From assembly GCA_041651115.1 (NCBI GenBank), contig JBAZJY010000003.1, forward strand, positions 3,188-67,187: DNA of 64,000 nucleotides. The letters are read 5' to 3'. Shown here one piece after another: positions 6,687-62,989 of the stretch. Origin of the DNA: Candidatus Omnitrophota bacterium. Its GTDB lineage: Bacteria; Omnitrophota; Gorgyraeia; Gygaellales; Profunditerraquicolaceae. The position numbers and the translations under genes are program-made. The notes beneath the pieces are model-generated. The model did not search any database, had not been told where the DNA came from, and worked only from the letters and a program-made list of their open reading frames with translations. Each line of letters begins with the position of its first letter. Position 1 is the first letter of the stretch.

Positions 6687-7858
6687 ATCTCAAATATGTT
6701 TTTGAAAATTCCCCGTACAGCGCTCCGGGGGCTAGACTTAAATGCGTTCTTAAAACTATTGATCCTTGCCCTTATGAACTTTAATCGTAAAATATAGTCC
6801 GCTCTAACATTTAATACATAATGCCCGCATTTATCACAATCTGTCTTTTCGATCACGGTGCCTGTTTTATGTATGTTTTTAGATATCCTGCGAAACTCTC
6901 TGTACATATCCGAGAACCATATTTTACTGAACTTAGATAAACAGTTATCCCCCATCACCAAACCGGAGCCGCAACACGGAAATACCAAACCTGATGAATC
7001 TATCCTGGTAAATAGCCACCCTATGTAACATGGAGTGCTGATTGTTGTTTTCCCCCCGGCAAGGTCTTTATCTTCCTGATTGCCACAATTAAAATAATGC
7101 GATTTTAAAAGTTCGGGAATTGAATTATTGATAAAGTATTTTGCGGCTAATTTTTCCGCCTCCAAAAGGTCTTTCTGAAGATGCGAATGTTGTTCGCTAT
7201 TTAATCTCAAAGATGAGAGCTCTGAATTTAACCATATCGGGCGGATATTGATATTTTTAACTCCGGTATCAACGGCAAAGCGCACCATATTAGTCGTTTC
7301 CGAATAATTAATATTGTTTATCACGGAATGCAGCGTAATCTTGGCTTTCTTTGATTTAGAAAGGATGGAGATACGCCGTTTCAGCCGGTAAAAATCTTCA
7401 GCGGAATGCCGCGGGTGGACCTTGCACCAAACATCGGGTGTCCCCGCGTGCAAGCTTATCCAGAATCGTACGTTTGGCATAGCTAGTTCATCAATCATCC
7501 CTTCCGTAAGGTGTATGCCGCTTGTTACTAAAATACACTCCATCCCGAGAGAAACAACGAATTTTATCATCTTCCCGATTTCCGGGTTTAGGAGCGGCTC
7601 CCCCTTCCCTACTATCTGTATTTTTTTCGTGCCAAGCATGTGCAATTCCCATGCCAATTTCTTAAAAGTTTCAAAAGAGAGGAATGCCTGGCCATTAGCT
7701 TGGTTGTTCCGGCTTGGGAGCAAGGGAGAAAAATTATAGCATAGCATACAGCCAACGTCACATAGCTCCGAAACCTCAATCTGCGCGCTTCTGGGGCCGC
7801 AGAATGCTGAATTGTTGCTTACCATCCCCATAAATGTTTTTAATTTTGTAAACCGCAT
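6677..7858 (-). CDS. radical SAM / SPASM-domain protein (peptide- or protein-modifying maturase-like)
   Basis: CDVGCMLC (CxxxCxxC) near N-terminus. C-terminal Cys-rich region CYIGW...PCCGSG...CDKCGHY consistent with SPASM auxiliary clusters. No adjacent small precursor ORF seen. Confidence 0.6.
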   Translation of the reverse strand: MRFTKLKTFMGMVSNNSAFCGPRSAQIEVSELCDVGCMLCYNFSPLLPSRNNQANGQAFLSFETFKKLAWELHMLGTKKIQIVGKGEPLLNPEIGKMIKFVVSLGMECILVTSGIHLTEGMIDELAMPNVRFWISLHAGTPDVWCKVHPRHSAEDFYRLKRRISILSKSKKAKITLHSVINNINYSETTNMVRFAVDTGVKNINIRPIWLNSELSSLRLNSEQHSHLQKDLLEAEKLAAKYFINNSIPELLKSHYFNCGNQEDKDLAGGKTTISTPCYIGWLFTRIDSSGLVFPCCGSGLVMGDNCLSKFSKIWFSDMYREFRRISKNIHKTGTVIEKTDCDKCGHYVLNVRADYILRLKFIRARINSFKNAFKSSPRSAVRGIFKNIFEMWE

Positions 7859-7865
7859 AATTTTC

Positions 7866-9758
7866 TTATATTTTTCCCTGTTTCCCGGTTGAACGCGAAG
7901 CAGCTTCTATTTGACGATTAATCTCGGAGACTCTGCCCGCATAATCGCCATATTCCGTTAAAAGCTCTTTATATATCTTTAACGCCTCCGTCGGCTCGCC
8001 TTCCTGACGATAAATATCAGCCAGGCTCATGCTGGAATGATATACCCGCCCGCGGTCAGCAGGGTCTTTTTCAAGGCTGATGAGAAATGCCTCCCTTGCT
8101 TCTTTTAATTTACCGATTTCCCGGTAAGCCTGGCCGATATTTATATAGATGTCAGCGGTTTTTTGCGGATCATCATTATATTCTACCAGGAGCTTCCCGT
8201 ATATTTTCAATGCTTCCATTTGCTTATTTTCCTGGCGATCAATTCCGGCCATGGCCAGCTTAGGCCAATAGAGTTTCTCGCGGGTCCCAGGGCCTTTGGC
8301 AATACTCAAGCGAAACGCATCCCTTGCTTCTTTTAATTTACCCATGTCTATATGGACATAACCGATGCTCAAATAAGTATCTGCGATTTTATCCGATAAA
8401 CCGCTATATTCGCTTAAAAATCCTTCATAGACCTGTAAGGCTTCCGCCAATTTACCTTCGCGGCGATAGATATCGGCCAGGCACATCCTTACCCAATATA
8501 CCCGCTCACGATCATTAACGTCATTATCAATACTAAGAAGGAATGCGTCCCTTGCCTCTTTTAACCTATCCATTTCCAGGTAAATCTGCCCGATTGCGGC
8601 ATAAGCGTCTGCCAGCTTGCGCGGAGCATCTTTATATTCGGTCAATATCCGGCCGTAAGTTTTTAATGCCTCCTGCCAGTTTCCCTGCCGTAGGCGGATA
8701 TCAGCCAATGTCATTTTTATCCTATATGCCCATTCGGGATCGCCGGGTTGCATCTCTAAACTTAGCTGGAATTCCTTAGCTGATTTTTCTAATTCGCCTC
8801 CGGCTAAATATACCTGCGCAAGCTCCTCATGTAACCAGGCAAGCTGGTCTTTAGGCAAATGCTTATTTTCCAGGAGCCCGGACAATACGTCCGCTGCTGC
8901 CTTAAAATCTTTATCCAGGCGATAGATCGCGGCAATCTTAACATAAGGAAAGAGGTCGTTTATGCCGTCACGGATATAGCGGGCAGCCAATAACCGATAG
9001 ATCTCTATTGCTTTCGCGGAATTGCCGCGCATATACTCTCTTTCCGCAAGCTGCGGCAAAACGTAAGTGCTCCTGTTCTTCGGGTCGGAAAAATGCACAA
9101 TACCTGACCAAACAGGCAATGCGGCAAGAATAAATAATACCGCCTGAAGAATCCTGTTTGCCTTGAGTACAGCCGCGGCTTTTTTTAATAATACTTTTCC
9201 CCTCGTATAAATCAAACCGTTGTTTTCCTCTATGTACCTCCTCTGCGCATCCGTCAGCCCTGAAGCATAAAAAAACAGCGCGCCCTGCACCTTGGCTTTG
9301 CTAAAGTTAACGCCTGCAACATTCGCGCCTGTCAGGTCAGCCCCGGAAAAATCCGCTCCGTCAACAACGGCATTTGCCAGGTCCGCATCGCGTAAGTCTG
9401 CGCCTGAAAAATCCGCTTCCCATGCGTTTATGCCGGCAAGAGAAGCTGCGCGCAGCATGCATCCGGCAAAACTTGTCTGCAGCGCGCGGCAGCCGGATAA
9501 TCTTGCTTCTTCCAGGATCACGCCGTACAGCCTTGCCCTACTCAAGTCCGCTTCCCGCAGGTCTGCGCCGCGCATAGTTACTCCCGATAGTATCGCCGAC
9601 TCAAAATTAGAGCCGGTAAGAGTAGCGGCGTCCATATCTACCCTTAACAAGCTTACCCTGCTAAAAACCATGCCCGCGAGCTTTGCCTTACGCAAATCAA
9701 CGCCAACCATCCGGGCTGCGCCACTGTGTTTATTTAGAGGATCAATGTTTATTCTCAT
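7866..9758 (-). CDS. pentapeptide-repeat / transmembrane / TPR-repeat protein
   Basis: N-terminal tandem A(D/N)LxxA pentapeptide repeats (ADLREADLSRARL...ADFSGADLRDADLANAVVDGADFSGADLTGANVAGVNFSKA). One TM helix (ILQAVLFILAALPVWSGIV). About 10 TPR repeats (repeated EAL.IY..LL.EY, DKIADTYLSIG, KLKEARDAF). Confidence 0.6.
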   Translation of the reverse strand: MRINIDPLNKHSGAARMVGVDLRKAKLAGMVFSRVSLLRVDMDAATLTGSNFESAILSGVTMRGADLREADLSRARLYGVILEEARLSGCRALQTSFAGCMLRAASLAGINAWEADFSGADLRDADLANAVVDGADFSGADLTGANVAGVNFSKAKVQGALFFYASGLTDAQRRYIEENNGLIYTRGKVLLKKAAAVLKANRILQAVLFILAALPVWSGIVHFSDPKNRSTYVLPQLAEREYMRGNSAKAIEIYRLLAARYIRDGINDLFPYVKIAAIYRLDKDFKAAADVLSGLLENKHLPKDQLAWLHEELAQVYLAGGELEKSAKEFQLSLEMQPGDPEWAYRIKMTLADIRLRQGNWQEALKTYGRILTEYKDAPRKLADAYAAIGQIYLEMDRLKEARDAFLLSIDNDVNDRERVYWVRMCLADIYRREGKLAEALQVYEGFLSEYSGLSDKIADTYLSIGYVHIDMGKLKEARDAFRLSIAKGPGTREKLYWPKLAMAGIDRQENKQMEALKIYGKLLVEYNDDPQKTADIYINIGQAYREIGKLKEAREAFLISLEKDPADRGRVYHSSMSLADIYRQEGEPTEALKIYKELLTEYGDYAGRVSEINRQIEAASRSTGKQGKI

Positions 9759-11442
9759 TTTTATAAACCAGAATTTCTTTATCGTCCGATCTTATTTTCT
9801 GCACTAATCTGATTTTAGGAAAGATGCCGATCAAAACATCTATATGGTTTTTCTTCAACCGATAGGCAGCCGGCATTTCTTTGTCCGGATAAGATCCATC
9901 AATCACCGCAAAATATTCCGCGCAATGAAAGTCAGCCCTATTTGCCTCGTTTAGATCACGCAAAAATTCGTCATACTCCAGCCATTTATTGCCGCGGCCT
10001 ACGGAGCGCACAAACAGGTAAAAATCGCAGTTGGAAATATTTATATTATCACGATAACGGATCAAATCTACCACTTTAGATTTATTATTATATGCCTGGA
10101 GCAGCATGCTTAAATAAGCGCCGCACTCCGGGGGGTTATCATCGGTAATGTAATAGACTACTCCGGCCCTGTATCTTTTCCCCCGGTTGGCCTGATTAAG
10201 GTATTCTGCGGCAGAATACCAGGGGCGCCACTGTTTCAGCGGAAAAGGCATACATTCAACGAACGTATATCTATCTATTGCCCGCGCCAAACCCGATCGT
10301 TCAAAAAACGGCGCTGCCGCAGGAAGCAAGACCGGAGTGAAACGCAGGAACGTAAATATGCTGAAAAATAAAAAAACAACGGCCAATGCCGATCTTAAGG
10401 CCTTCGGCCGCACGTAAGACAGCCCCAATCCGCTGATAATGCCGAAAAAAGGCACATAAGGAACGGCGTATTGGAAGAATCTGGCTGTCATAATGGTCAG
10501 GATGCAAAAAGGCACGATAAACCATACAAGCAGAAGCAATTTATGCCATTTATTTTTATGCTCCCGGAAAAAATAAAAAGCGCCGGTGACGAACAAAATA
10601 ACATTTATAAGGCCAAGATGGTAATTCTTTATCGCGGTCAAATGGTATGCCAGAAAAGAGAGTTGATACGGATGGCTGACTCTCACCCCGTCCTGATTGC
10701 TCAAGAACAGGCGCGCTATACCGTCTCGATCCATACACGAAGGATGGATCAGATAATTCTTATAGTATACCAGCAAAACCAGCAGAAAGCTTAACAGCAA
10801 CGCGATAATCAGGTTGTTGCGGCCGGCTTTGTTGGCTGTTACCGGGATAAACAGATAAAAGAATACCGCGCACAACGGCCCGACAATAAAAAAGATTATG
10901 CTTTGTTTTATCAGCAGGCCTGCCGCAAGCAAAATACCGAACCAAAGCGAATATACAAGGCTGTTAAATCCGCTTGTCCTGATTAAAAAATAGAATATCC
11001 ATACGGACATCGCCGCCTGCGCCAGCTCCAGATCAAAAACCCGCGAGGCTGCATAGATAACCGGATAGAACCCAAGGATCACCGCGCTCAATAAGCCGGC
11101 TGTCCGGTCTTTAATATATTCGCCGATCTTATAGGCGCCGCATAGTAACAGGGCAAGGAACAGGCTTGAAGTCAGAAAAAAATATTTATACCCAAAGACG
11201 ATCCGGATCAAGGCGGAAATTAAATAATAAAGCGGCGGATAGCTGGGCTCAGCGGTTAAGGCGTCCAGAAAACTGTCCTGATGGTTGCCGGTCAGGACCT
11301 TGTACATGCGCGCCCCCTGGCTGGCATGGTAAGCAGTATCCTTCCACGCAAATACGTCGTAATACTGCATAAATATATAATTGGAAAAAACAAAAAAACC
11401 GATAATGGAAAACAATAATACCAGTGCGAGTTTTCTGCTCAT
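9742..11442 (-). CDS. GT-C fold membrane glycosyltransferase, ArnT/PMT-like (COG1807; GT39/GT83)
   Basis: Multi-pass membrane protein. N-terminal periplasmic loop with HASQGARM...EPSYPPLYYLISAL, like the ArnT/PMT DE...YPPL signature region. C-terminal soluble domain. Confidence 0.55.
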   Translation of the reverse strand: MSRKLALVLLFSIIGFFVFSNYIFMQYYDVFAWKDTAYHASQGARMYKVLTGNHQDSFLDALTAEPSYPPLYYLISALIRIVFGYKYFFLTSSLFLALLLCGAYKIGEYIKDRTAGLLSAVILGFYPVIYAASRVFDLELAQAAMSVWIFYFLIRTSGFNSLVYSLWFGILLAAGLLIKQSIIFFIVGPLCAVFFYLFIPVTANKAGRNNLIIALLLSFLLVLLVYYKNYLIHPSCMDRDGIARLFLSNQDGVRVSHPYQLSFLAYHLTAIKNYHLGLINVILFVTGAFYFFREHKNKWHKLLLLVWFIVPFCILTIMTARFFQYAVPYVPFFGIISGLGLSYVRPKALRSALAVVFLFFSIFTFLRFTPVLLPAAAPFFERSGLARAIDRYTFVECMPFPLKQWRPWYSAAEYLNQANRGKRYRAGVVYYITDDNPPECGAYLSMLLQAYNNKSKVVDLIRYRDNINISNCDFYLFVRSVGRGNKWLEYDEFLRDLNEANRADFHCAEYFAVIDGSYPDKEMPAAYRLKKNHIDVLIGIFPKIRLVQKIRSDDKEILVYKNENKH

Positions 11443-11490
11443 TCCTGCCCCTTAAGGTAAGCGTAACTGCCCATACAGCGCCCGAGCCGG

Positions 11491-13140
11491 TCAATAAACC
11501 CGGAAAACAATATTCTCTTCGTCTTCATATATAAGCCGGTAATTTTCTTTATAGAGTCTGATGCGGCCGCGCGCCTCTAAAGGAATAAGGTATTTATGTA
11601 TCACGATATATTTGACTTTATTGACGGACAACTGCAGCTTCTGCAGGCTTAAGTCGTTTAATTCCAGGCGGCTGATAAGCGGTTTGCCTACCCGGCGCGA
11701 AATATAGCCCTGGACTATCGGGAGAGCGTGAAAAGTCTGATACATCATATATCTTGCCGCATACATATAATTATAAGCGGGTAAATCCAAAATGCCGAAT
11801 TTTTCAGTATCCTTGCCGATCGTTTTATAGGCAGGCGGACAATATACCGGCGTTATTGCCGCGCATACCGAGTAATAATCGCAGAATAATAACAGGCTAA
11901 CCAGAAAAAATGCCAGACCCCTCCTTATCAACTTAAAGCCATAAGCCCGATACAGGTATTTTATGGCAAAAGAAACTATGACCGCCCAAAACAGATAAAC
12001 GTAAACTATGGCCCGTGACGGTGTATGCATTACCGATAACAGGGGGATGTGTTTCATCAGCGCGTAAGGAAGCGGTATAGAGCTTTGCCAGCCAAATATA
12101 TGCACGGAAGTACCCATGGACAAGGCTAAAAACGGCAGAGCGGCAAGAAAATATTTTGCGGCTTGCTTTTTTATTCCTTTAAACGCCAGAATAACAAGAA
12201 CAATGCTTATAATGCCCAGATAACCGGTCTGTTCCCACGGATTGCCGGTAAACCTGGTGTTTATGTATTGAAATATACTACTGTCGGCAAGCGCATGGTA
12301 CGGATGCGGCACTATCAAGGCCAAAAGGTCAATTACAAATATATCCGGATTACGCAAGCCGGCTGTCTCAGGGTGGTTCAGGCCTACTTTCGCCATCTTA
12401 AACAGCCACGGCCCAAGAATTAATACGGCAGGCAAAAGAGTTAAAACGGATTTTTTTAAGGCATCGGGAAGGAAAAATCTTCTTCTCCTAAAAACCAGGT
12501 ACACATAACCAAGGCAGACAAAGATAACGCCCAAAACAAAATAATAAAGACTGCTGACGCTGTTTAATGCGAAAAACAGGCCGGCAAGAAATAAATCTTT
12601 TTTGGAATTATAACGCAAGGCCTTTATGAAATACAGGACAAAAAACGGTATGAATTGGATCGTTGCCAGCTCTATGTGGTGCAGGGAATGCGCAAAATGC
12701 GAAGGGTTAAAAGCAAAAATAAAGCCCCCGACCGCGGCCGCAAACGGATCCTTTGTCAAATACCTGACTAAAAGGAAAGCGCCGATACCGGAAAGCACGA
12801 ACGTTGACAATATCAGCAGATTATAGGCAAATACCGGGCTTATGAATTGCTTTAATATTACGGCGATAAAAAGGTTATAAAAAGAAAATGCCTGGAATAA
12901 CAATGAACTGCCTTCCGGATAAAATATATAATTTGAAAAGGCCATGCTCCCGGAATGCCCTACAAACACCTTATTCGCCCACCATATATCCCAGAAATGC
13001 GACAGATTGTCTTCCGCAGGCCCGATCAGCGAAAGTGCGATCTCCTTAAGGCAGGGAGAAAAAAAGACCGCAGTAAAAAAACAATATGCCAGGATAGCGG
13101 CTAAAAAAACGTATCTACTGCTGACGGATTTTTTGGGCAT
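11491..13140 (-). CDS. polytopic membrane protein, probable GT-C type glycosyltransferase (YfhO/ArnT-like)
   Basis: More than 10 TM segments plus a ~120 aa C-terminal soluble domain. Sits between a GT-C and a GT2 gene. No sharp motif recognised. Confidence 0.35.
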   Translation of the reverse strand: MPKKSVSSRYVFLAAILAYCFFTAVFFSPCLKEIALSLIGPAEDNLSHFWDIWWANKVFVGHSGSMAFSNYIFYPEGSSLLFQAFSFYNLFIAVILKQFISPVFAYNLLILSTFVLSGIGAFLLVRYLTKDPFAAAVGGFIFAFNPSHFAHSLHHIELATIQFIPFFVLYFIKALRYNSKKDLFLAGLFFALNSVSSLYYFVLGVIFVCLGYVYLVFRRRRFFLPDALKKSVLTLLPAVLILGPWLFKMAKVGLNHPETAGLRNPDIFVIDLLALIVPHPYHALADSSIFQYINTRFTGNPWEQTGYLGIISIVLVILAFKGIKKQAAKYFLAALPFLALSMGTSVHIFGWQSSIPLPYALMKHIPLLSVMHTPSRAIVYVYLFWAVIVSFAIKYLYRAYGFKLIRRGLAFFLVSLLLFCDYYSVCAAITPVYCPPAYKTIGKDTEKFGILDLPAYNYMYAARYMMYQTFHALPIVQGYISRRVGKPLISRLELNDLSLQKLQLSVNKVKYIVIHKYLIPLEARGRIRLYKENYRLIYEDEENIVFRVY

Positions 13141-17199: not shown

Positions 17200-17273
17200 T
17201 GGCGGCGAGAGGATTTAAACCTCTGACTTATCGGGTATGAGCCGACTACTCTATCGGGCTGAGTTACGCCGCC
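17200..17273 (-). tRNA. tRNA with CAT anticodon (elongator Met or Ile2/lysidine type). No encoded CCA.
   Basis: Minus strand: GGCGGCG-TA-ACTC-AGCCCGATA-GAGT-A-GTCGG-CTCATAC-CCGAT-AAGTC-AGAGG-TTTAAAT-CCTCT-CGCCGCC-A. It folds as a cloverleaf with a 7/4/5/5 bp stem pattern. The D-loop has GA instead of GG18-19 and the T-loop has U56 instead of C56, an apparent A19-U56 covariation. About 125 nt upstream of tilS in the same orientation. Confidence 0.75.
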
Positions 17274-17387
17274 AAAATCTACTATTATAATCCAGGCGCA
17301 TGTCCTTGCTCGCTTTGCTCGCAAGGATTAATTCGGCCAGCAAACTTATGTTTGCTATCGCTCCACAAGTTTGGGCCTCATTTAAGT

Positions 17388-17426
17388 ATGAGCCGCGTGC
17401 TCTATCAGGCTGAGCTACTCCGCCAA
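17388..17426 (-). pseudogene. tRNA(CAT)-like 5' half fragment (acceptor, D-arm, anticodon stem 5' strand and loop only)
   Basis: Minus strand: GGCGGAG-TA-GCTC-AGCCTGATA-GAGC-A-CGCGG-CTCATAC, then no complementary CCGCG or T-arm. About 80% identical to the 5' half of the intact tRNA 115 nt downstream. Confidence 0.45.
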
Positions 17427-17429
17427 ATT

Positions 17430-18026
17430 TTATTTTTTCTTGCGCAGCTGGTATTCTACATAACCGGCAAGGACTTCCGCTACCTTTATCGGAGGCTGCA
17501 CAACAAAATAACGGCTCATTATCGCGTGGGCGATCTCATGGCCAAGCACTTCTTTTGTAAAATTATCCGGAGAAGTATAAATCGTGTTTAAGTCGGCAAC
17601 AAAAAGCGTATGGTTTTCCGGTTCCCTGCCGAAAAACTCCTTATAAAGGTTGCTCAATTGCGCTTCATTGCGGCAAACCTTGATATTGCCGTGAAAACTG
17701 TAAATATGCATATCCAATATATCGGATACCCTTAAAAAAAGCGTATCGACCATATCGGCAAGGCTATCAGCAGAACCACCCGCATAATCAGAGCCCCATT
17801 TTTCAGTAGAGCCGCCGGTAAGGACTCTATCCTCTACTCCGATGTTCAGCTTTTGGCTAAGCTCCGCAGGGTCAACCTGTGAAGCGTAATACACGGTAAA
17901 ATATTTGCCCTCTACGCGGCGCGCCGAACCAAAACCGTCATCAAAACCATAAACCATTCCGGCTGCGGCAGGCACGAGCAGCAAAACGAGGCATATTATA
18001 CAATAAAACCGGGATTTCGGCATCAA
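17430..18026 (-). CDS. secreted protein with HExxH motif (putative small zincin-like metallopeptidase)
   Basis: Signal peptide (CIICLVLLLVPAAAG). HEIAHAIM motif near C-terminus. Otherwise unrecognised. Confidence 0.4.
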   Translation of the reverse strand: MMPKSRFYCIICLVLLLVPAAAGMVYGFDDGFGSARRVEGKYFTVYYASQVDPAELSQKLNIGVEDRVLTGGSTEKWGSDYAGGSADSLADMVDTLFLRVSDILDMHIYSFHGNIKVCRNEAQLSNLYKEFFGREPENHTLFVADLNTIYTSPDNFTKEVLGHEIAHAIMSRYFVVQPPIKVAEVLAGYVEYQLRKKK

Positions 18027-28480: not shown

Positions 28481-29238
28481 CGCTGTCCCTCCTTTTTGTC
28501 TAAACTTGTAATTTCGCTTTTTATGCAAACTTCAAGAATGTCACCTTTAATTTCTGTTGTTATTTCATCGGCTGCCAGCTTAACGCCTTTTTTCTCATAA
28601 GCCTGCGTAAGCGCGCCGGCTATCTGGTTGATATCGTCTTCAGTCAGCCAGTGCCCTTCAAGCGGCGGAATGATCTCCCCGATTTCTTTTTCATTGAGCA
28701 ATTCGGCGCCTTTTATGCTGATTTTTTTAACGAATACTTTGTCCGGGCTATTGATCTTTTGCCTTAGCGCCGCCTCTTCTTCAAGCAACTCCTCAAACCG
28801 CGCTATTTCGCCGGCGGTTTTTTGCGCAAAGCAAAGAGGTATACCGCCATCGATAATATTGGCAATCCTTTTTGCAAATAAAGCATAACCTACGGCAAGC
28901 GCGTTCAGGCAGGCGATCAAAGAAACTGCCGCGGCAATGTCTTTAACCAGCTTTATCAGGATATGATACTTGCGGGTAGTCATATCAATCATCATTTCAA
29001 TTGCCGTATTGAAGATCTCCGCCATAAATACGAGAGTGATGGTAATGCATAGCGCGATCAATTCAAGGCCGTTTAATCCAAAATAGACGCCCAAAAGGAA
29101 TGCCGCGACCCCGAGCATGAACATGATGCGCATATTGCGGTGATAAAGGAACAGATAGCCGACGCCTTGCGCTGCCAGCCGCATGCTTTGAAAAAATCCC
29201 GTGAAACGGAAGATATGCTTAAGTACCCGCTTTTTCAT
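28477..29238 (-). CDS. prokaryotic diacylglycerol/undecaprenol kinase (DgkA) fused to a C-terminal POTRA-like periplasmic domain
   Basis: N-terminal 125 aa has three TM helices and the DgkA signature EIFNTAIEMMID plus KDIAAAVSLIACLNALAVGY. C-terminal 125 aa (VFVKKISIKGAELLNEKEIGEII...DDINQIAGALTQAYEKKGVKLA...GDILEVCI) is collinear with the POTRA_2 region of the adjacent TpsB. Start TAATG overlaps the acsE stop. Stop overlaps the tpsB start. Confidence 0.6.
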   Translation of the reverse strand: MKKRVLKHIFRFTGFFQSMRLAAQGVGYLFLYHRNMRIMFMLGVAAFLLGVYFGLNGLELIALCITITLVFMAEIFNTAIEMMIDMTTRKYHILIKLVKDIAAAVSLIACLNALAVGYALFAKRIANIIDGGIPLCFAQKTAGEIARFEELLEEEAALRQKINSPDKVFVKKISIKGAELLNEKEIGEIIPPLEGHWLTEDDINQIAGALTQAYEKKGVKLAADEITTEIKGDILEVCIKSEITSLDKKEGQR

Positions 29239-30026
29239 TATTTTTTTCTATACGCGTCCAAATAAGAATCGCAATAAATATGCTTATTGAGGATCAATTC
29301 CGCGGTTATCGCTGAATCTACAAGCTCTTTATCTTTAGGATCCATTATAGCAGCATCTAAGCCATAAGCAACTGCCATTGTTAAGAACGTGCGGTTGATC
29401 AAACCACGCACACAGCTGCCCTGCGATACGTTGCTTAAGCCCAGGATTGTCTTGGGCGAAGGCTCGGAGATAATCTTAAATTCACGGATAGATTCCAGAA
29501 TGTCTAGCATCTGCGGCTGGGCAACGTTCACCGGCAGCACGATCGGATCAAGAAAAAGGTCATCAATAGCAAAACCCTGGTCAACGCAGGTAGAGACAAT
29601 AGTTGCTGCCAGTTCCAGGCGCTGGTCTTTATTCTGCGGAATGCCTTTTGCGCTTATGGTGATGCCGATCAGCCTGGCCTTATATTGCTTTGCCAACCCT
29701 ACCAAAACCTCTAATTTGTCCGGATCAGCAGTAGTAGAATTGATGATCGGCCTGCTCTTTATCACTTTTAAGCCGGACTCAATGACTTTAGGCTTGCTGG
29801 AATCAAGCGCCAGCGGCTTATCGGTTACTTCCTGTATGGTTTCCACCAGCCACTGAATATCGGAAACCGGGTCGCGCGACACCGGGCCGCAATTCACATC
29901 TAAAGCGTCTGCGCCTGCCTCAACCTGTTCAAGCGCGCATTTTTGTATGGCTGACTTATCGTGCTCCTTGATCGCTTTGCCGATATTCTGATACATCCCA
30001 TTGATCAGCTCGCCGATTATGAACAT
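29238..30026 (-). CDS. acsE: methyltetrahydrofolate:corrinoid/iron-sulfur protein methyltransferase AcsE (pterin-binding MeTr)
   Basis: MFIIGELINGM...DVNCGP...INSTTAD...LGLSNVSQ...IYCDSYL matches AcsE/MeTr. Start placed at ATG 30026 (AAGGAG SD 7 nt upstream) rather than the TTG at 30056, which lies inside a palindromic repeat. Confidence 0.75.
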   Translation of the reverse strand: MFIIGELINGMYQNIGKAIKEHDKSAIQKCALEQVEAGADALDVNCGPVSRDPVSDIQWLVETIQEVTDKPLALDSSKPKVIESGLKVIKSRPIINSTTADPDKLEVLVGLAKQYKARLIGITISAKGIPQNKDQRLELAATIVSTCVDQGFAIDDLFLDPIVLPVNVAQPQMLDILESIREFKIISEPSPKTILGLSNVSQGSCVRGLINRTFLTMAVAYGLDAAIMDPKDKELVDSAITAELILNKHIYCDSYLDAYRKK

Positions 30027-30040
30027 ATAGCTCCTTAGAT

Positions 30041-30117
30041 TAGGGACGGTTCTCAACTCAAAGCTAAAGTGTCCCCCCTACGGGGACACTTTACGATTGG
30101 CTTGAGAACCGTCCCTA
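30041..30117. repeat. ~76-bp nested palindromic intergenic element, copy 1 (REP/MITE-like)
   Basis: TAGGGACGGTTCTCA...GTGTCCCC-CCTAC-GGGGACAC...TGAGAACCGTCCCTA. 15-bp perfect terminal inverted repeats plus an inner 8-bp hairpin. A second copy with identical termini is at 61018-61093. Confidence 0.6.
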
Positions 30118-31073
30118 AACAGGTTATCGATATATTTTTTTATTTTCTCAATTGCGACCGGATGTCTCATCACCAGGATATCCGCGCCTGCCTGGACCAG
30201 CGCGGCTGCGGTTACAGCTTCCCAGGTCACGCCCCGCTCCATTTCCGGGCCCCATGCCGGCATTTCTGCAACAGGCAATTTCGCTTCTTTTGCCCGCCAT
30301 GATTCCTGACCCACAAAACAGATAAACGGGCTGGCAACGGTTTTATCTCCGGCTAAAGCTGCCAGACGGCTGCGTTCCATAATTGAATAAGCATACTCAA
30401 GCCCATACCCCAGGGCGCCGATCGTCGGGTTGATCACGATCCGCTCTAAGGGCAATCCCATATCTGAAATCAAGATATTCAACTGCTTGGCAATATTTAT
30501 GTCTATGGGCGATTCGGCAATAATGCTGTGGCCGTCAGCCAGGACCGCGGCTGCCAGCGTTTTATAATTATCCTGCACAGCGCTCCCGATCAAGCAGCGT
30601 TCACCTTTGGCAGCTTCACAACAGGCAGGCAAAACCTGATTATCTTTGGCATCATCCCCGCATCCGGTGATCACCAGCGGCACAGTTATCTTTTTCAATA
30701 GTTTTTTAATAAAGTCTGCTGCCTCGGCAGGCCCCTTATTGCCGGATTCAGGATGCGTTCCCTGTAATTTTACGCAAAGCAGCTCGGCCTTATATTCGCG
30801 CACGCATTTCTCCGCCCAGGCAAAGGGATCCTTTAGAACTTTTCCGTAGGCACAAGCTAATGCTTCCGGCCAGTCATTCGGAAGTATATCCCAAACCTCA
30901 TAAGCGATCACCGGCTTATTGGGGATCGCGCCTTCTGCGAATAAATACGGTAAGGCTTTTTGGCCGCCGACCTTGACCTGCCGGCTGCGTGAACCGCCCT
31001 CTTGCTTTGTCGCTCCGATAGTTACCGTAAAAACTTCACCCGACCATTTTTCCAGCATCAACTCAGTTGCCAT
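30078..31073 (-). CDS. acsD: corrinoid iron-sulfur protein small subunit AcsD (CdhD-like, TIM-barrel)
   Basis: 331 aa. WSGEVFTVTIGAT...VITGCGDDAKDNQVLPACCEAA... Collinear with CFeSP small subunits. The last ~13 codons overlap the palindromic element. Confidence 0.7.
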   Translation of the reverse strand: MATELMLEKWSGEVFTVTIGATKQEGGSRSRQVKVGGQKALPYLFAEGAIPNKPVIAYEVWDILPNDWPEALACAYGKVLKDPFAWAEKCVREYKAELLCVKLQGTHPESGNKGPAEAADFIKKLLKKITVPLVITGCGDDAKDNQVLPACCEAAKGERCLIGSAVQDNYKTLAAAVLADGHSIIAESPIDINIAKQLNILISDMGLPLERIVINPTIGALGYGLEYAYSIMERSRLAALAGDKTVASPFICFVGQESWRAKEAKLPVAEMPAWGPEMERGVTWEAVTAAALVQAGADILVMRHPVAIEKIKKYIDNLFRDGSQANRKVSP

Positions 31074-41642: not shown

Positions 41643-43103
41643 TTATAACTTTGGTTTTTGCAAATGCCACGCCGTGCCTTGTTCATAAGCATGGGCCGCG
41701 CGTAAAATGGCCTCTTCGTTAAAAGGCCTGGCCAAGATCTGCAAGCCGACAGGCAGCCCGGCCTTCGTAAAGCCGCATGGTAGGGATATTGCCGGAATAC
41801 CTGCCAGGTTCACGGATATCGTATAGATATCCGACAAATACATACTTAAAGGGTCTTGCGCCTTCTCCCCGATCTTAAACGCCGGAGTAGGTGAAGTAGG
41901 GGTAATAATACAGTCAAAATCAGCGAACACAGCGTCAAAATCCTGTTTGATCAGAGTCCTCACCTTTAATGCGCGTAAATAGTAAGCATCGTAATAGCCG
42001 TGTGAAAGCGCGAATGTTCCCAAAAGAATCCTGCGTTTTGCCTCTTCGCCAAAACCCTGGCCGCGCGTTCTTTTATACATCTCAATCATGCTCTGGCCAT
42101 GCGCAGCAGTATTTTTGGCGCGATAGCCGTATTGCACGCCGTCAAAACGGGCGAGATTAGAGCTCGCCTCGGCAGTGGCAATAATATAATAAACCGGAAC
42201 AGCATATTCGGTATGGGGCAAAGACACCTGCTTGCAAGAAGCGCCCAAACTTTTTAATTTTTCAACTGCTTCTTCAACAATGCTCCTTACTTCCGGGTCC
42301 ATTCCATCAATAAAATATTCTTTAGGCAATGCGATCTTCATTCCCTTAATATCATTGGTCAGCGATCTTGTGTAATCCGGCACCGGCAGGTCGACAGAAG
42401 TAGAATCGTTTGTATCATGGCCGGAAATAACATTCATTAGCAGCGCCGAATCGCGCACATCTTTGGTGATCGGGCCGATCTGATCAAGGCTTGAGGCAAA
42501 TGCGATCAAGCCGTAACGGGAAACCCTGCCGTATGTCGGCTTCAACCCAACCACTCCGCAGAAGGCTGCCGGTTGGCGGATGGAACCGCCGGTATCAGAG
42601 CCTAATGCCATAATTGCTTCATCCGCGGCAATTGCCGCAGCAGATCCACCGGATGAGCCGCCGGGCACGCGCTCCAAATCCCAGGGGTTGCGCGTGGGGC
42701 CAAAACAGGAATTCTCCGTAGATGAACCAAACGCAAATTCATCCATATTTGCCTTGGCAGCTAAAACTACTGCTCCTGCACTTTTAAGTTTTTTTATGAC
42801 TGTCGCATCATAAGGAGGCTTAAATCCGGCAAGGATCTTTGAGCAGCATTCGGTATTCTGGCCGTCGGTGCAGATATTGTCCTTGATGGTAACGGGGATG
42901 CCGCTTAGGTGATAGGTGTCAGGTGTCAGGTGTTGGGCGTCAGGTGATAGGCCCAAGGGATCAGAAAGCCTGACATAGGCCTTAACCTTAGGATCGGTTT
43001 TTTTAATACATCGTTCTAAATCTGCAATAACATCCCGGGAGGTTATTTCTTTTTTCCCTAATTTCCCTAAAAATTCATGCGCAGTTAATCTATTTAGTTC
43101 CAT
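41643..43103 (-). CDS. gatA: Asp-tRNA(Asn)/Glu-tRNA(Gln) amidotransferase subunit A (amidase signature)
   Basis: [13 protein letters not shown] amidase signature. 486 aa. Contains an in-frame heptamer-repeat-derived insert ([13 protein letters not shown]) at 42908-42952. Confidence 0.9.
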
Positions 43104-43152
43104 TATATTCTTTCTAACCTGACACCTAACACCTAAGACCTAACACCTATCA
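43104..43152. repeat. tandem heptanucleotide repeats (mRNA strand GATAGGT GTTAGGT CTTAGGT GTTAGGT GTCAGGT) filling the gatC-gatA junction
   Basis: Five tandem GTYAGGT units on the minus (mRNA) strand between the gatC stop (43150) and the gatA start (43103). Each unit carries an SD-like AGGT(G). Confidence 0.65.
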
Positions 43153-48465: not shown

Positions 48466-51243
48466 TTAGAACTTGCGGCGGTAATAAAGGCGGAAGATGT
48501 GCTCTGTGTCCAGGGTTTCTACGCTGCTGCCATAAGGATCCCATCCGACGTTAAGCAAACCTCCCTCATAGGGGTTACGGCTTGCTTCGCCGTATTGGAA
48601 AACAAAATTTTCCAATTCCGACTTACGGTACATCAGCTCAATGAACGCGTTGTGATGGCTGTATAATTTTGTGCTGCCGGCGATCAATTTATCAAGGTCC
48701 TGCCAACGGGAATAAATATATTTAAAGAAAATACCTAATTTCGGAGTAGGCGAATAAGAAACCTCCAGGCCGATATGGTTCAAGTTACCGTCTACCTGCC
48801 CTGCTTTTTCATATGAATTGCGCGTATAATCAAGGTAAAACTGCCATTTCTCCGAAGGAGTAAGAGTCAGGCCGGTGCGGAATATATTATAAAAATCATA
48901 GGGCGGCTTTGGAAAAAACTGCTGACTGTAAAGGAACGCGCGCTCTTGCCGGTATTGGTTATCGTATTCGGAAAATGTCGAGCCCATATCCGTACTTGAT
49001 AATATCGACCTTGGAAACCCGTCATAACCAAGGGTATAATCATTGGTATATTCCCAGATGCCGTTTACCGTCATCCAATCATTAAGGGCATATTCAAGCC
49101 CCAGGGAACCGGTTTTTAGCGTAGGATCCAGGCCGTCGGTAATTTCGGAATTGGCATAATACTGCCGCGTCAGCGGATCAAAAAGGAACGGATCAAGGCC
49201 TGCCGTTGTCCTCGGCAGCTTATTATAAATACCTAACATCTTCGTCGTCAATTTTTCGTTTGCCTGCCATGTCAATTCATCCCGCACGACATTCTCAATA
49301 AATTTCCCGTTTGTCCCATGGACATTGCGCACGTCAAAGAGATTATCCACCTGCTTATCCCATAACTGAGATTCTATGCGCAGGCCAATAGTGTTACGGC
49401 CGATATCAATGCCGTTACCGACTTTGCGATTCTTTACATCATCCCAAGTCAATAGTTTGCCTTCCCCCTGGTCTCCTTCATAGAAAAACCGGAACGGCTG
49501 CCGGAAATTCAAGTGCCTTCCCCACCATTCGTCATCGCGCGTTTCCACATAAGAAGACAGGGACTGATCAAAAGACTCATCCATGCGGGATACGAAGAAC
49601 CGGAATTTGTTAAAGAAGCGGTCTTTCTCATCCGGCTGTATTCCGTCATAACCATATTTAGTGTTAATAACGCTGGCAAAGGGAAATCTTCCGATAAGCG
49701 AAAAATAGTACGCATTGCCGCCTTTTTCGGATTTGAATTGGTCGTCGCTCAAGTCATAGTATGATTTTGATGCGGCAACTTCTGCGCTGGCCATGATGCC
49801 GTTAATCGGCTCATAGTTTATGTCTCCGCCGGCAACGTAATTCTTTGCATCGGTCCGGTACTCTTTCTCCGTCTCAAATCCTAAGCGGGCGGTATAAGTG
49901 GCGCCGATATTAAGGCTATCCCAGATTCGGTGTTTTAGCCGCGTAGCGGAAATAATATTATCTGCATCCGAATAATCCTGCCAAAGGTCCTTTGGGGTCG
50001 CAAAATTGGAAACTATGGACGTCCCTTCCCACGGGGTCAGCTGAAGATCCAAACCCCGCAGTCCGGTCAGGCGTTGGCCCTCGCTGTCGCGCGTATAAAA
50101 AGAAAGTGTATTGTCCCAGTAGCCCCTGGTGAAATCAACCGGCGTAAGCCCGGAATTCCTTCTGCCCGGAGTCCACCTGCGTATCCACGGGCTGTCTTCC
50201 CACCACTGCCGGTTATTGGACAGCCTTAAAGGATCGTCAAACGTCGAAGCCTGGTTCTCGTAGGCAAGCGGATAAAATTTGGCGCTAAAAATATCGCTAT
50301 TATAACCAGCCCATAATTCGCGTACCGGCTGGAATTGATAATAGATTTTCGTTGCGGGAATGGTAAAACTGTCGGAAACAGGAATAGTATAATCACCGGC
50401 CTTGGTAAACGCGTCTGTACGTCCGTCTTTAACTTTTATTTCGGGGAGGTTAAATGAATTACCCAGGCTGGTTGTATAGGCTTTCTCATTAATCGTATAA
50501 CCCGTATTGGACCAATATTTTAATTCTACTTCGGCGGTATCGCCAAATGCGCTGGAGACAGTGGTCTTAGCGCTCTTACCAGTAAAGCTCCAGGGATCGA
50601 CGACCACATTACTATAAAAACTAAGGCCTTCTTCGTTATTTCCTTTTTCCAGCTTTACCGCCATACGGTCGTATATCCGCGGATCGTATGTATTTTCCTT
50701 ATTATCGAAAGCAGAATCTGAATTCCTGCGGTAATTACGCTCATTCAAATCCCAGTTCGCCCTCTTCCATACGGCATCGCCGGAATCCATACCAACCCTT
50801 ATCTGCGCTTCTCCGGTAACCTTTACGCCGGCGATCTCTAAAGCTTCGTCAACTGCCTCATCTTTGGCAGCGGGCTTAACAACGGGAGCTGCCGGTTTAG
50901 CTTGAGCCTTGGGAGCCTCTTTATAATTATTCAACGCCTGTTCCATAGCGTCGTATTTATCGGCTTTGAATTGCGCGGGAACTGCTTCCAGCTGCTGCGC
51001 AGGTTCAGATGATGCGGAAAAAATATCGTTTATGTATCTTAAAGCAGTCTTATTGGAAGAGTCTAGACTAAGCGCTTTTTTAAACTCGGTAAGCGCGTCA
51101 TCGTATCTTCCTTGACGGTAGAATTGAATGCCTAATTCGCAGAGATATTCTACCGTAGCGGGGGCACTATGGGCGGGCTCGATACAGATAAAACCTGATA
51201 TCCAAATTACTACTAAAGCTAGGGAAAATAATTTCTTGAGCAT
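48466..51243 (-). CDS. large outer-membrane beta-barrel protein with N-terminal TPR module (BcsC/PgaA-like exopolysaccharide export porin architecture)
   Basis: Signal peptide. N-terminal TPR-like helices (YLCELGIQFYRQGRYDDALTEFKKALSLD). Long region of alternating amphipathic beta-strands ending ...HIFRLYYRRKF (terminal Phe). Converges stop-to-stop (1 nt gap) with the plus-strand gene. Confidence 0.5.
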   Translation of the reverse strand: MLKKLFSLALVVIWISGFICIEPAHSAPATVEYLCELGIQFYRQGRYDDALTEFKKALSLDSSNKTALRYINDIFSASSEPAQQLEAVPAQFKADKYDAMEQALNNYKEAPKAQAKPAAPVVKPAAKDEAVDEALEIAGVKVTGEAQIRVGMDSGDAVWKRANWDLNERNYRRNSDSAFDNKENTYDPRIYDRMAVKLEKGNNEEGLSFYSNVVVDPWSFTGKSAKTTVSSAFGDTAEVELKYWSNTGYTINEKAYTTSLGNSFNLPEIKVKDGRTDAFTKAGDYTIPVSDSFTIPATKIYYQFQPVRELWAGYNSDIFSAKFYPLAYENQASTFDDPLRLSNNRQWWEDSPWIRRWTPGRRNSGLTPVDFTRGYWDNTLSFYTRDSEGQRLTGLRGLDLQLTPWEGTSIVSNFATPKDLWQDYSDADNIISATRLKHRIWDSLNIGATYTARLGFETEKEYRTDAKNYVAGGDINYEPINGIMASAEVAASKSYYDLSDDQFKSEKGGNAYYFSLIGRFPFASVINTKYGYDGIQPDEKDRFFNKFRFFVSRMDESFDQSLSSYVETRDDEWWGRHLNFRQPFRFFYEGDQGEGKLLTWDDVKNRKVGNGIDIGRNTIGLRIESQLWDKQVDNLFDVRNVHGTNGKFIENVVRDELTWQANEKLTTKMLGIYNKLPRTTAGLDPFLFDPLTRQYYANSEITDGLDPTLKTGSLGLEYALNDWMTVNGIWEYTNDYTLGYDGFPRSILSSTDMGSTFSEYDNQYRQERAFLYSQQFFPKPPYDFYNIFRTGLTLTPSEKWQFYLDYTRNSYEKAGQVDGNLNHIGLEVSYSPTPKLGIFFKYIYSRWQDLDKLIAGSTKLYSHHNAFIELMYRKSELENFVFQYGEASRNPYEGGLLNVGWDPYGSSVETLDTEHIFRLYYRRKF

Positions 51244-51285
51244 ATTTGCTATATATTATAGCGGCTGCTCCAATATGTCAAGAAA

Positions 51286-51335
51286 AAAATAGGGACAGAG
51301 ACTACTTTTCCGTACGAAAAGTAGTCTCTGTCCCT
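51286..51335 (-). terminator. rho-independent terminator
   Basis: 19-bp perfect hairpin AGGGACAGAGACTACTTTT-CCGTACG-AAAAGTAGTCTCTGTCCCT. Flanked by an A-run upstream and a T-run downstream, so it could terminate in both directions. Lies after the 51345..51677 ORF. Confidence 0.65.
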
Positions 51336-51344
51336 ATTTTTATT

Positions 51345-59386: not shown

Positions 59387-60445
59387 TTCCCCCACCGGAT
59401 ATGATCCGAGGACCTTCATGAATTTACATTTTCCTTCCAGCTCTTGCAGCGCTTTTTTTACCCTGATTTCGCTTACATGCCCCTGAAGATCAACGTAGAA
59501 ATAATAGTCCCATGCCTTTTTCTTGGAAGGCCGTGACTCGATCTTTGTCAGGTTAAGCTTATATTTTTTAAAAGGTAAAAGCATGTCATGCAGCGCGCCG
59601 ACTTTGTCCTTAATAGAAAACATTATTGACGTGCGGTCATTGCCGGTTGCCGGGACGTCGGATTTTCCGATCACAAGGAACCGGGTGATGTTATGCGGAG
59701 AATCTTCTATGCCGGAAGCGATTACCTTGAGCTTATATATTTTTGCCGCCAAGAGCGAAGCAATACAGGCGCTGCCTTTTTCTTTCGCAGCGATCTGCGC
59801 GGCGCGAGTGGTACTGGAAACCTCTATTTTCTGCGCGCAGGCAAGGTTCTTCTCAAGCCACAGCCGGCATTGCCCGAATACGTTCGGATTGGAATACACT
59901 TTTTTAATTTTATTTTTTGGGCAATTCGCCAAAAGATTATGCGATATATCAAGGATTATCTGGCTGCAGATCTTTAGATCCGAGTCAATGAACATATCCA
60001 ACGTATAGCTGATCGCTCCTTCAATGGAATTTTCTATCGGCACCACACCGTAATCGGCATTACCTCTTTCCACTTCCAAAAATACCTCGCCGATAGAATC
60101 ACAGGCAAGATACTCTACCTGCGTGCCGAATCTTTTTATTGCCGCAAGATTGCTGAAAGATGCCTCGGGCCCCATATAAGCGACCTTCATCGCCTTACCT
60201 AGCGCAAGGCTGGACGACATGATCTCCCGGTATATTGCTTCCAAAGCCCCGGTGCCAAGCGGCCCCCTGCCAAGCGATGCTACTTTTTTCAAGACTTCTC
60301 TTTCGCGGTCAGGCGAATAAACGCTTTTTCCGGAGCTGATCTTTACCTTAGCAATGCCGGAGCTGACCTTGGCGCGCGCGTTCAAAAGCCCGATGATCTT
60401 TTTATCAATGCCGTCAATTTCCTTCCGTAGCTTTTGCAGGCTCAT
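59384..60445 (-). CDS. pheA: bifunctional chorismate mutase / prephenate dehydratase with ACT domain
   Basis: N-terminal chorismate-mutase helix (LRKEIDGIDKKIIGLLNARAKV). PDT domain. C-terminal ACT (IMFSIKDKVGALHDMLLPF). Confidence 0.8.
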   Translation of the reverse strand: MSLQKLRKEIDGIDKKIIGLLNARAKVSSGIAKVKISSGKSVYSPDREREVLKKVASLGRGPLGTGALEAIYREIMSSSLALGKAMKVAYMGPEASFSNLAAIKRFGTQVEYLACDSIGEVFLEVERGNADYGVVPIENSIEGAISYTLDMFIDSDLKICSQIILDISHNLLANCPKNKIKKVYSNPNVFGQCRLWLEKNLACAQKIEVSSTTRAAQIAAKEKGSACIASLLAAKIYKLKVIASGIEDSPHNITRFLVIGKSDVPATGNDRTSIMFSIKDKVGALHDMLLPFKKYKLNLTKIESRPSKKKAWDYYFYVDLQGHVSEIRVKKALQELEGKCKFMKVLGSYPVGE

Positions 60446-61010
60446 CTTTCTTCTCCTCTACCTTTTCTTCTGCCTTTTCCTCTATTATTTTTGGCTCGGA
60501 AAAATCTTCCATCTTAGGCAAGTCTTCCAGGGACTTTAAACCGAAATGTTCCAGGAATTGCCGTGTTGTCCCGTATACGATCGGCCGTCCGGGCGCGTTC
60601 TTTCTACCGGTGATACGGATCAACCCCTTTTCAAGCAGGCTGGACATTACGCCGTCAACGTTCACGTTCCTTAAAGATTCAATTTCAATCTTTGTCAACG
60701 GCTGTTTATAGGCAATGATCGCCAGTGTTTCAAGCGCCGGCTTGGAAAGTTTTTCTGCCCTGCGCTGTTTATACATTTTTCTTAAAAACGGCGCCAGCGC
60801 AGGCGGAGTGATCATCCTGAAACCCCCGGCAACCTCGGTAATGCGGATGCCGCGGTTTGATTCTTCATATCCGGCGTTGAGCTCGGCAACGACCTTGCGC
60901 ACCCCATTGGCGTCAAGGCCGTCAACAACGTCTTTTATCTGTTCGATAGTCAGCGGCTTTTCGCTGATAAAAAGCATTGCCTCAACTACAGCGTGCGTAT
61001 TTTCCAGCAT
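60414..61010 (-). CDS. scpB: segregation and condensation protein B
   Basis: VEAMLFISEKPLTIEQIKDV and two winged-helix repeats. 198 aa. Confidence 0.8.
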   Translation of the reverse strand: MLENTHAVVEAMLFISEKPLTIEQIKDVVDGLDANGVRKVVAELNAGYEESNRGIRITEVAGGFRMITPPALAPFLRKMYKQRRAEKLSKPALETLAIIAYKQPLTKIEIESLRNVNVDGVMSSLLEKGLIRITGRKNAPGRPIVYGTTRQFLEHFGLKSLEDLPKMEDFSEPKIIEEKAEEKVEEKKDEPAKATEGN

Positions 61011-61017
61011 ATCTCTT

Positions 61018-61093
61018 TAGGGACGGTTCTCAGACCAAGGGAAAAGTGTCCCCATTCGGGGACATTTTTCTCCTTGGCCGAGAACCGTCCCTA
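61018..61093. repeat. ~76-bp nested palindromic intergenic element, copy 2
   Basis: TAGGGACGGTTCTCA...GTGTCCCC-ATTC-GGGGACAT...GAGAACCGTCCCTA. Fills the gap between the ruvA stop (61091) and the scpB start (61010). Termini identical to copy 1 at 30041-30117. Confidence 0.6.
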
Positions 61094-62954: not shown

Positions 62955-62989
62955 CTGTTCCTCCTATTTTTTGTTTTTAATTAATAGAC

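Follow-up and report, generated by a model that had tools for sequence, protein, structure and literature searches.

The two nested palindromes found in the window, a 64,000-nt stretch of a Candidatus Omnitrophota MAG (ENA ERZ27247363, contig k141_297481), are in our reading REPINs of a REPIN-RAYT system, a known kind of bacterial repeat, and we put the probability of this assignment at roughly 0.9. A REPIN is a REP doublet that folds into a hairpin, a small mobile element without coding capacity that depends in trans on a single-copy REP-associated tyrosine transposase (RAYT) of the HUH/Y1 family. The occurrence of REPIN-RAYT in Omnitrophota is no new kind of system; it extends the range of these systems to an uncultured phylum with small, tightly packed genomes. 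To our knowledge, REPIN-RAYT systems have been studied almost only in Proteobacteria. The literature that we searched contained no paper linking Omnitrophota with REP elements, and a literature search by the sequence string of the element returned only unrelated primer matches.

Two nested palindromes in the window

Copy 1 occupies positions 30041-30117 of the window (77 nt) on the plus strand, which corresponds to the RAYT-sense orientation, with profile scores of 79.5 bits on this strand and 61.8 bits on the minus strand. It is composed of a left REP (30041-30076) of the 'AAAGC' type, as found 5' of RAYT genes, an apical loop (30077-30081) and a right REP (30082-30117) of the 'AATCG' type, as found 3' of RAYT genes. 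Copy 2 (61018-61093, 76 nt) comprises a left REP (61018-61053), a loop (61054-61057) and a right REP (61058-61093), and was assigned no strand, its profile scores being 50.3 and 50.4 bits on the two strands. Searched with a profile built from 47 family members, the 64-kb window contains only these two copies.

The arms of copy 1, TAGGGACGGTTCTCA and TGAGAACCGTCCCTA, are perfect over 15 nt and surround an inner hairpin GTGTCCCC...GGGGACAC. The initial annotation had attributed perfect 15-bp terminal inverted repeats to both copies. This is correct for copy 1 but not for copy 2, which has the same left arm as copy 1 and a right arm, CGAGAACCGTCCCTA, that matches at 14 of 15 positions; one mismatch is also present in its inner hairpin GTGTCCCC / GGGGACAT. 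The repeats exist as sequence, and we recast them as the outer stems of two inverted REP units. Copy 2 belongs to a subfamily distinct from that of copy 1, characterized by the spacers CCAAGGGAAAAG and CCAAGGAGAAAAA, and is 96-98% identical to copies in four other loci (L182, L195, L214 and L133).

Folding of the two copies as RNA gave -54 to -61 kcal/mol, compared to about -25 kcal/mol for shuffled sequences (z from -9.5 to -11.7). As single-stranded DNA, copy 1 reached -29.9 kcal/mol (z of -11), and the single REP halves of the window copies, with -2 to -5 kcal/mol, did not fold better than shuffles. When up to three mismatches were allowed, the 15-mer arm matched the window five times against 0.82 expected, a count that 0 of 100 shuffles reached. 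The long nested palindromes first noticed at these two sites are therefore real, with extreme folds and an arm motif far above chance.

Size of the family

An exact pattern made of the two arms retrieved at least 115 loci and at least 119 elements from metagenomes (114 unique among the matches listed), with a modal length of 77 nt. In species-representative genomes, a 14-mer of the arm detected the same nested element, of about 73-77 nt, in at least five other Omnitrophota MAGs (L042, L053, L064, L090 and L109), and half copies in L046 and L058. Most of the matches of this 14-mer scan were in unrelated genomes, yet they exposed the cross-phylum hairpins described below, as well as the first RAYTs. 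The density is about 3 copies per 100 kb, as estimated from the window and from the extra copies in fetched loci; extrapolated from this density, a genome would hold tens to about 100 copies. Such copies can break assemblies, and they are good markers of strain-level insertion polymorphism. The two-arm element pattern had no match in 2.9 million viral contigs, and the 77-mer had none in plasmid or phage collections. Rfam searches returned nothing at either site at the gathering score, and permissive searches returned sub-threshold look-alikes of miRNA precursors.

These numbers bear on the simplest alternative, namely that the resemblance of the two copies is fortuitous, whether they are palindromes arisen by chance or ordinary bidirectional intrinsic terminators. 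The presence of only two copies in 64 kb would agree with it, and intergenic hairpins are common. We nevertheless give it next to no credence, as the shuffled windows never attained the observed motif count and at least 119 near-identical elements are found on independent contigs. Furthermore, the hairpins are not followed by a proper T-tract, and both window copies lie inside co-directional runs whose relatives have overlapping stop and start codons.

Anatomy of the element

The element is an inverted doublet of a REP unit of about 35 nt, arranged around an apical loop of 4-5 nt. Each unit consists of a TAG foot, the stem core GGGACGGTTCTC, a spacer of 8-10 nt and the sequence AGAAC(T/G)GTCCCC. 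In aligned copies, a motif M (GGGACNGTTCT) occurs four times in the order M, M', loop, M, M'. The two units are consistently unlike in their spacer, which is of the CAAAGC type in one and of the CAATCG, CAAAGG or GTTCG type in the other. We counted 35 pairings of AAAGC with AATC, 23 of AAAGC with AAAGG and 8 further heterodimers, against a single AAAGC homodimer. Within the REP, the palindrome is incomplete: GGGACGGTTCT pairs to AGAAGTGTCCC at 9 of 11 positions in the family consensus.

The foot was analysed on 104 copies. The base located 5' of TAG was T in 52 copies, G in 22, C in 18 and A in 12, TAG itself being fixed by the search pattern. The foot of the family is therefore not the canonical GT[AG]G of REPs and is better described as NTAG, mostly TTAG. 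This foot and the weak internal palindrome of the single REP halves in the window copies depart from the usual description of REPINs. Copies flanking RAYT genes show TTAGGG, CAGGG and CCCTG, and relatives in PVC bacteria carry GTAGGGACGG.

In the consensus of 47 oriented 77-mers, the outer 16 and the inner 10 positions are paired, and conserved mismatches are present at stem positions 17-18 and 22-24. Elsewhere the pairing of the stem is nearly invariant, with few double-sided changes. Covariation is uninformative on RNA structure because the pairing follows from the inverted-repeat origin of the element and the variable positions are the conserved mismatches. Of the RNA folding and covariation analysis that the initial annotation had suggested, folding gave clear-cut values (z of about -10) and the alignment gave no independent covariation support.

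RAYT genes between inverted REP halves

Y1/HUH transposases were sought by regular expression and then with phmmer among all the ORFs of the fetched loci. Six independent Omnitrophota loci encode a HUH/Y1 transposase of 156-160 aa with one inverted REP half on each side. In four of them (L149, L156, L191 and L195) a left REP, TAGGGACGGTTCTC...GTGTCCCC, and a right REP, GGGGACAC...GAGAACCGTCCCTA, exactly enclose the RAYT gene; the same REP-RAYT-REP arrangement is seen in L241/L242 and L243/L244, which hold two RAYTs from the window's own sample. The REP located 5' of the RAYT gene is of the AAAGC type and the REP located 3' is of the other type. The REPIN is therefore the RAYT unit minus its gene.

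The protein of locus L195, P0121 (158 aa), scored 92 bits against the NCBIfam model NF047646 (REP_Tyr_transpos, cut-off 80) and 26.5 bits against NF033573 (transpos_IS200, cut-off 55). It was assigned to PF01797. Four other Omnitrophota RAYTs fell just below the cut-off of 80 of NF047646, with 77.7-78.6 bits. The only PDB match of P0121 was the E. coli TnpA-REP structure 4ER8 (E = 5e-6, 30 bits), and the alignment covers nHiHli, lWQdRF and dYIegNPV, corresponding to the HUH, WQxRF and YIxxNPV motifs. Homologs of the RAYT numbered 1464 at E <= 1e-20. The best 120 of these 1464 are 156-244 aa long, nearly all of them 156-162 aa, and fall into clusters present on 1-7 contigs; every one that bears an organism name is from Omnitrophota/Omnitrophica, and two carry the JGI name 'REP element-mobilizing transposase RayT'.

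In six of six loci, the RAYT gene lies between a ribonucleotide-reductase or phosphoglycerate-mutase-like gene and gidA/mnmG, and the GidA proteins of these RAYT lineages are only 62-71% identical. As expected of a RAYT, the gene thus appears to be single-copy and vertically inherited at a fixed chromosomal site. This matches published accounts of RAYTs, according to which the gene is present once, keeps to one intergenic position and is passed on vertically (bioRxiv 10.1101/2021.07.10.451892; PMC5581495). In L195 the block made of the ribonucleotide reductase, the phosphoglycerate-mutase-like gene where present, REP-RAYT-REP and gidA spans 7167-12029 and is common to L149, L156, L191 and L241-L244. 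A further whole REPIN is found in L195 at 11954-12029, directly past the end of the gidA match.

P0121 is likely the cognate RAYT in the genome of the window. Its contig, Ga0265297_10000299, and the window derive from one sample, and the tetranucleotide correlation between the two is 0.976, compared to 0.93-0.97 for controls internal to the window and 0.81-0.91 for the sample's other contigs. The REP located 5' of the P0121 gene has exactly the sequence of the left half of copy 1, and the contig carries a REPIN of the copy 2 type that is 96% identical to that of the window. It is on sample, composition and shared REP subtypes that this assignment is based. Integron attC sites, CRISPR repeats, type III toxin-antitoxin RNA repeats, DNA uptake sequences and Tn3-type ends had also been considered in view of the tandem arrays of L025 and L070 (see below), and were dropped given the RAYT flanks.

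Host genes and insertion polymorphism at the two junctions

As initially annotated, both elements sit inside co-directional gene runs and in transcribed regions, all flanking genes being on the minus strand. The acsD/cdhD-like gene (CODH/ACS delta subunit, 331 aa, 30078-31073, minus strand) reads into copy 1, and its last 12 residues, RDGSQANRKVSP, together with the stop codon (30078-30116), are encoded by the REPIN. AcsD homologs are 319-323 aa long and cover 95-97% of the query, those of relatives ending in ...KYIGQLMEG before the stop codon. In the alignment the 77-nt insert sits a few codons ahead of the native stop, and the tail RDGSQANRKVSP is therefore element-encoded. Downstream, the acsE-like methyltransferase gene (29238-30026, minus strand) starts at ATG 30024-30026 with a ribosome-binding site AAGGAG at 30031-30036, 4 nt past copy 1. 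This ATG aligns with the starts in relatives, and the gene call in L239 is 262 aa. The element had been said to swallow an upstream start codon of acsE: an in-frame TTG (30054-30056) does lie inside copy 1, but the real start is the ATG, and it is the insertion that produces the longer, spurious ORF beginning with TTG and extending to 30056. At the second junction, the TAG stop (61091-61093) of ruvA (61091-61717, minus strand) is the terminal TAG of copy 2, and scpB (60414-61010, minus strand) starts at ATG 61008-61010, 7 nt past the element. For genome annotation this means that the elements create false extended ORFs (the TTG start of acsE), alter protein ends (the 12-residue tail of AcsD) and donate stops (ruvA).

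In relatives with 79-83% AcsD identity, acsD and acsE are separated by -1 to +5 nt and there is no element. Likewise, ruvA and scpB overlap or abut (TAATG) in relatives with 86-90% RuvA identity; in the window, 76 nt are inserted at this junction, ruvA ends at a new TAG and the start of scpB is remodelled. Judged from these alignments, both window copies are lineage-specific insertions and the orthologous junctions of relatives are empty. The initial annotation had held that chance would be the explanation if only two copies existed and relatives lacked them. Relatives do lack them, but more than 100 copies exist elsewhere; absence at orthologous junctions combined with such a number of copies therefore indicates mobility, not chance. 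The proposal of a miniature mobile element thus agrees with the empty junctions and can be refined to a REPIN, as opposed to a MITE of the terminal-inverted-repeat type.

No target-site duplication was detected above chance among the 104 canonical copies (8/104, 1/104, 3/104 and 0/104 for 2, 3, 4 and 5 nt, respectively). At 10-20% protein divergence, the relatives do not fix the cut point in the pre-insertion target of the window copies. We weighed these data against a classical MITE, that is a DDE-type IS, for instance one like IS630/Tc1 that targets TA, which has lost its interior and depends on full-length copies elsewhere for a transposase that binds its 15-bp terminal inverted repeats. 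Perfect terminal inverted repeats with TA at both ends, a size typical of MITEs and insertion at non-orthologous sites are all features of such an element. However, no target-site duplication is seen beyond TA, which the search pattern fixed, and no DDE transposase was found within these termini in about 1.7 Mb of fetched loci, screened without a dedicated DDE search. The only gene located between the halves is the Y1/HUH RAYT, at a fixed syntenic locus that is not IS-like, and the halves differ from each other in a conserved manner that matches the 5' and 3' flanks of RAYT. A MITE of this type was rejected for want of a duplication and of a parent IS, and we regard it as very improbable.

Placement of the copies relative to genes

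Ninety-four of 104 copies lie outside long ORFs. Among 75 copies with two close neighbours, 70 are between co-directional genes, a share equal to the background of these genomes, in which 659 of 726 junctions (91%) are co-directional. The TAG of the element is the stop codon of the upstream gene in 23 of 82 cases, in line with the use of the TAG of REP termini as a stop codon reported by Di Nocera et al. (PMC3733652); in most other cases a native stop is found 0-13 nt upstream of the element. The downstream start is usually 6-25 nt past the element. With respect to transcription, the two orientations are unequally represented (39:18; p of about 0.008, binomial estimate), and this bias would fit strand-specific targeting of single-stranded DNA as in IS200/IS605.

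The same data could be read as the signature of a selected cis-acting RNA, an inter-cistronic stem-loop serving in mRNA stabilisation, RNase processing or attenuation. The RNA hairpins are indeed very stable, the 70 copies between co-directional genes are held tightly between stop codon and ribosome-binding site, and the 39:18 bias is relative to transcription. Moreover, the inner hairpins weakly match a terminator-like consensus on the transcribed strand, and for E. coli REPs both stabilisation of the mRNA upstream and termination of transcription have been reported (PMC6006769). Nevertheless, the orthologous junctions of relatives do without the element, the co-directional context does not exceed the 91% of the genomic background and one third of the copies have the opposite orientation. 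There is no match to an Rfam family, positions 22-24 are conserved mismatches with few double-sided changes in the stem, and the conservation of the sequence is accounted for by the REPs that flank RAYT. A function as RNA is, as the primary identity of the element, refuted by insertion polymorphism as far as the compared junctions tell, and overall we consider it improbable.

Proposed mechanism

Returning to the REPIN-RAYT reading, a course of events can be proposed on the model of E. coli TnpA-REP and IS200/IS605. RAYT would bind REP hairpins in single-stranded DNA, then cut and rejoin the REPs, so that REPINs would be copied in trans to new sites and leave no target duplication. In these compact genomes, the insertions that survive occupy the short gap separating a stop codon from the ribosome-binding site of the next gene, and the terminal TAG often turns into the stop of the upstream gene. 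Copy 1 landed in the last codons of acsD, giving rise to the new 12-residue tail, and copy 2 replaced the overlapping ruvA stop and scpB start. Once transcribed, the copies would form an RNA hairpin of about 35 bp which, by analogy with E. coli REPs, may affect mRNA decay, termination or translational coupling.

Comparison with known systems

The REPINs and RAYTs described here agree with the account given in bioRxiv 10.1101/2021.07.10.451892. They share with the REPIN-RAYT systems of Pseudomonas and Enterobacteria (Bertels & Rainey 2011, PMC3116915; RAYT groups 2 and 3, PMC5581495) an inverted pair of REPs forming a long hairpin, the lack of target duplication and, to judge from the contigs sampled, many dispersed copies outside genes. 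In both, a single-copy HUH/Y1 RAYT is flanked by the same REP in a conserved vertical locus and is not carried on plasmids or phages. They differ by the host phylum, the uncultured Omnitrophota, by the length of the element (77 nt instead of about 100) and by the foot, mostly TTAG instead of GT[AG]G. In addition, one REP stands on each side of the Omnitrophota RAYT, whereas whole REPINs flank the gene in Pseudomonas and Enterobacteria, and at about 3 per 100 kb the elements seem sparser than in RAYT groups 2 and 3, for which hundreds of copies per genome are typical.

Similarities extend to the BIMEs and REPtron of E. coli (4ER8; PMC3479197, PMC6006769), in which unlike REPs are also inverted, Y with Z1/Z2 there and AAAGC with AATCG/AAAGG here. 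The protein has the HUH, WQxRF and YIxxNPV motifs of E. coli TnpA-REP, and the REP termini can supply stops in both (PMC3733652). On the other hand, the similarity to E. coli TnpA-REP is distant at the protein level (see the E-value and score above), no IHF-type linker motifs were recognised in the Omnitrophota element and the REPs of E. coli, which are 35-40 nt long, rich in GC and built on a GTAG foot, are unrelated in sequence. IS200/IS605 elements and their gene-less PATEs offer another parallel: a Y1 HUH enzyme lies between unlike left and right subterminal hairpins, non-coding derivatives keep the two ends only, there is no target duplication and the orientation is biased. Here, however, the protein is below the IS200 cut-off and above the RAYT cut-off, and the RAYT is single-copy and syntenic by gidA, not multi-copy and mobile. 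The fixed position of the RAYT, with a single REP on either side, is relevant to the origin of REPINs from IS200-like elements.

REP sequences are usually described as species-specific. The 12-mer core of the Omnitrophota REP is found also as hairpin arms in Bacillaceae, Clostridia and PVC bacteria, and this sharing of a REP core by several phyla is the least expected observation of the analysis, which we present as a lead. Two Firmicutes RAYT loci (L067, a Tepidanaerobacteraceae MAG, and L099, Halobacillus locisalis) have an identical REP stem core, GGGACGGTTCTC / GAGAACCGTCCC, directly flanking the RAYT, and the RAYT of L099 is 38% identical to P0121. The Firmicutes proteins are nevertheless longer, with 250-280 aa and a C-terminal HTH domain, and instead of the 77-nt doublet with four motifs their repeats take the form of single 40-55-nt hairpins or of tandem arrays. 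The Omnitrophota repeats also recall the 'double-foot' REPs of TnpA-REP subclass 2.4 (Quentin et al., PMC6006769), which have TAG/TGG feet at both ends of the hairpin. The Firmicutes RAYTs and REPs look similar to the double-foot, HTH-bearing subclasses of the same study (PMC6006769).

Whether the 12-nt core reflects a conserved recognition of DNA by RAYT across phyla is a testable question. As a tentative idea, to which we grant well under an even chance, Omnitrophota may preserve an ancestral form of REPIN-RAYT, in which an IS200-like RAYT still has a single REP on its left and another on its right but has become fixed beside gidA, and from which REPINs derive by exact removal of the gene. 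The 12-nt stem GGGACGGTTCTC, common to RAYT clades of Omnitrophota, Bacillota and PVC bacteria with proteins of only about 38% identity, would mean a cross-phylum recognition code, and the placement relative to stop codons and ribosome-binding sites might reflect the target choice of the enzyme and not only selection.

Several other repeat loci were noted among the fetched sequences. In an Opitutae MAG (L106, 6600-7330), a 149-aa RAYT has whole REPINs, GGTAGGGTCAGCACTGCGTGCTGACC..., on both sides, which shows a second REPIN-RAYT family with the canonical GTAG foot in PVC bacteria. In L152 (3675-4931), a 234-aa RAYT is flanked by repeated TAGGGACGGTTCTC motifs and adjoins a 419-aa protein with a RAYT-like N-terminal domain and a long C-terminal extension containing a hydrophobic segment. 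Head-to-tail arrays of GAGAACCGTCCC occur in Oribacterium sp. NK2B42 (L025, 1982-2126; 8 units with a 19-nt period) and in Clostridiales UBA3678 (L070, 454-548; 5 units with a 21-nt period); each array follows the end of a gene or a promoter and precedes a start codon.

Other features of the window

A perfect 26-bp inverted repeat, AAAAATAGGGACAGAGACTACTTTTC / GAAAAGTAGTCTCTGTCCCTATTTTT, with runs of A and T beside it, is present at 51285-51341 and is followed on the minus strand by TTGACA...TATAAT upstream of a 925-aa ORF (48466-51243). It looks like a bidirectional intrinsic terminator combined with a promoter. We had considered this repeat as a further REPIN, as it starts with TAGGGAC like a REP, and rejected it: it is unique in all fetched DNA. 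Short repeats CCTGACACCT / AGGTGTCAGG gave 9 matches against 1.4 expected, at 2066-2102, 42905-42950 and 43117-43152. One set falls within the 5' portion of a gatA-like ORF, an inverted set is found at a distance of 171 nt in the interval preceding this ORF, and the third is that at 2066-2102.

Two RNA genes were identified on the minus strand: a bacterial class A RNase P RNA (62985-63320, 195 bits) and a tRNA gene (17200-17273). A similar stretch at 17386-17437 suggests two adjacent tRNA genes. Finally, a 70-nt unit is repeated three times at 8051-8576 with a spacing of exactly 228 nt and 71-77% identity, and is probably a repeated domain within a coding region.
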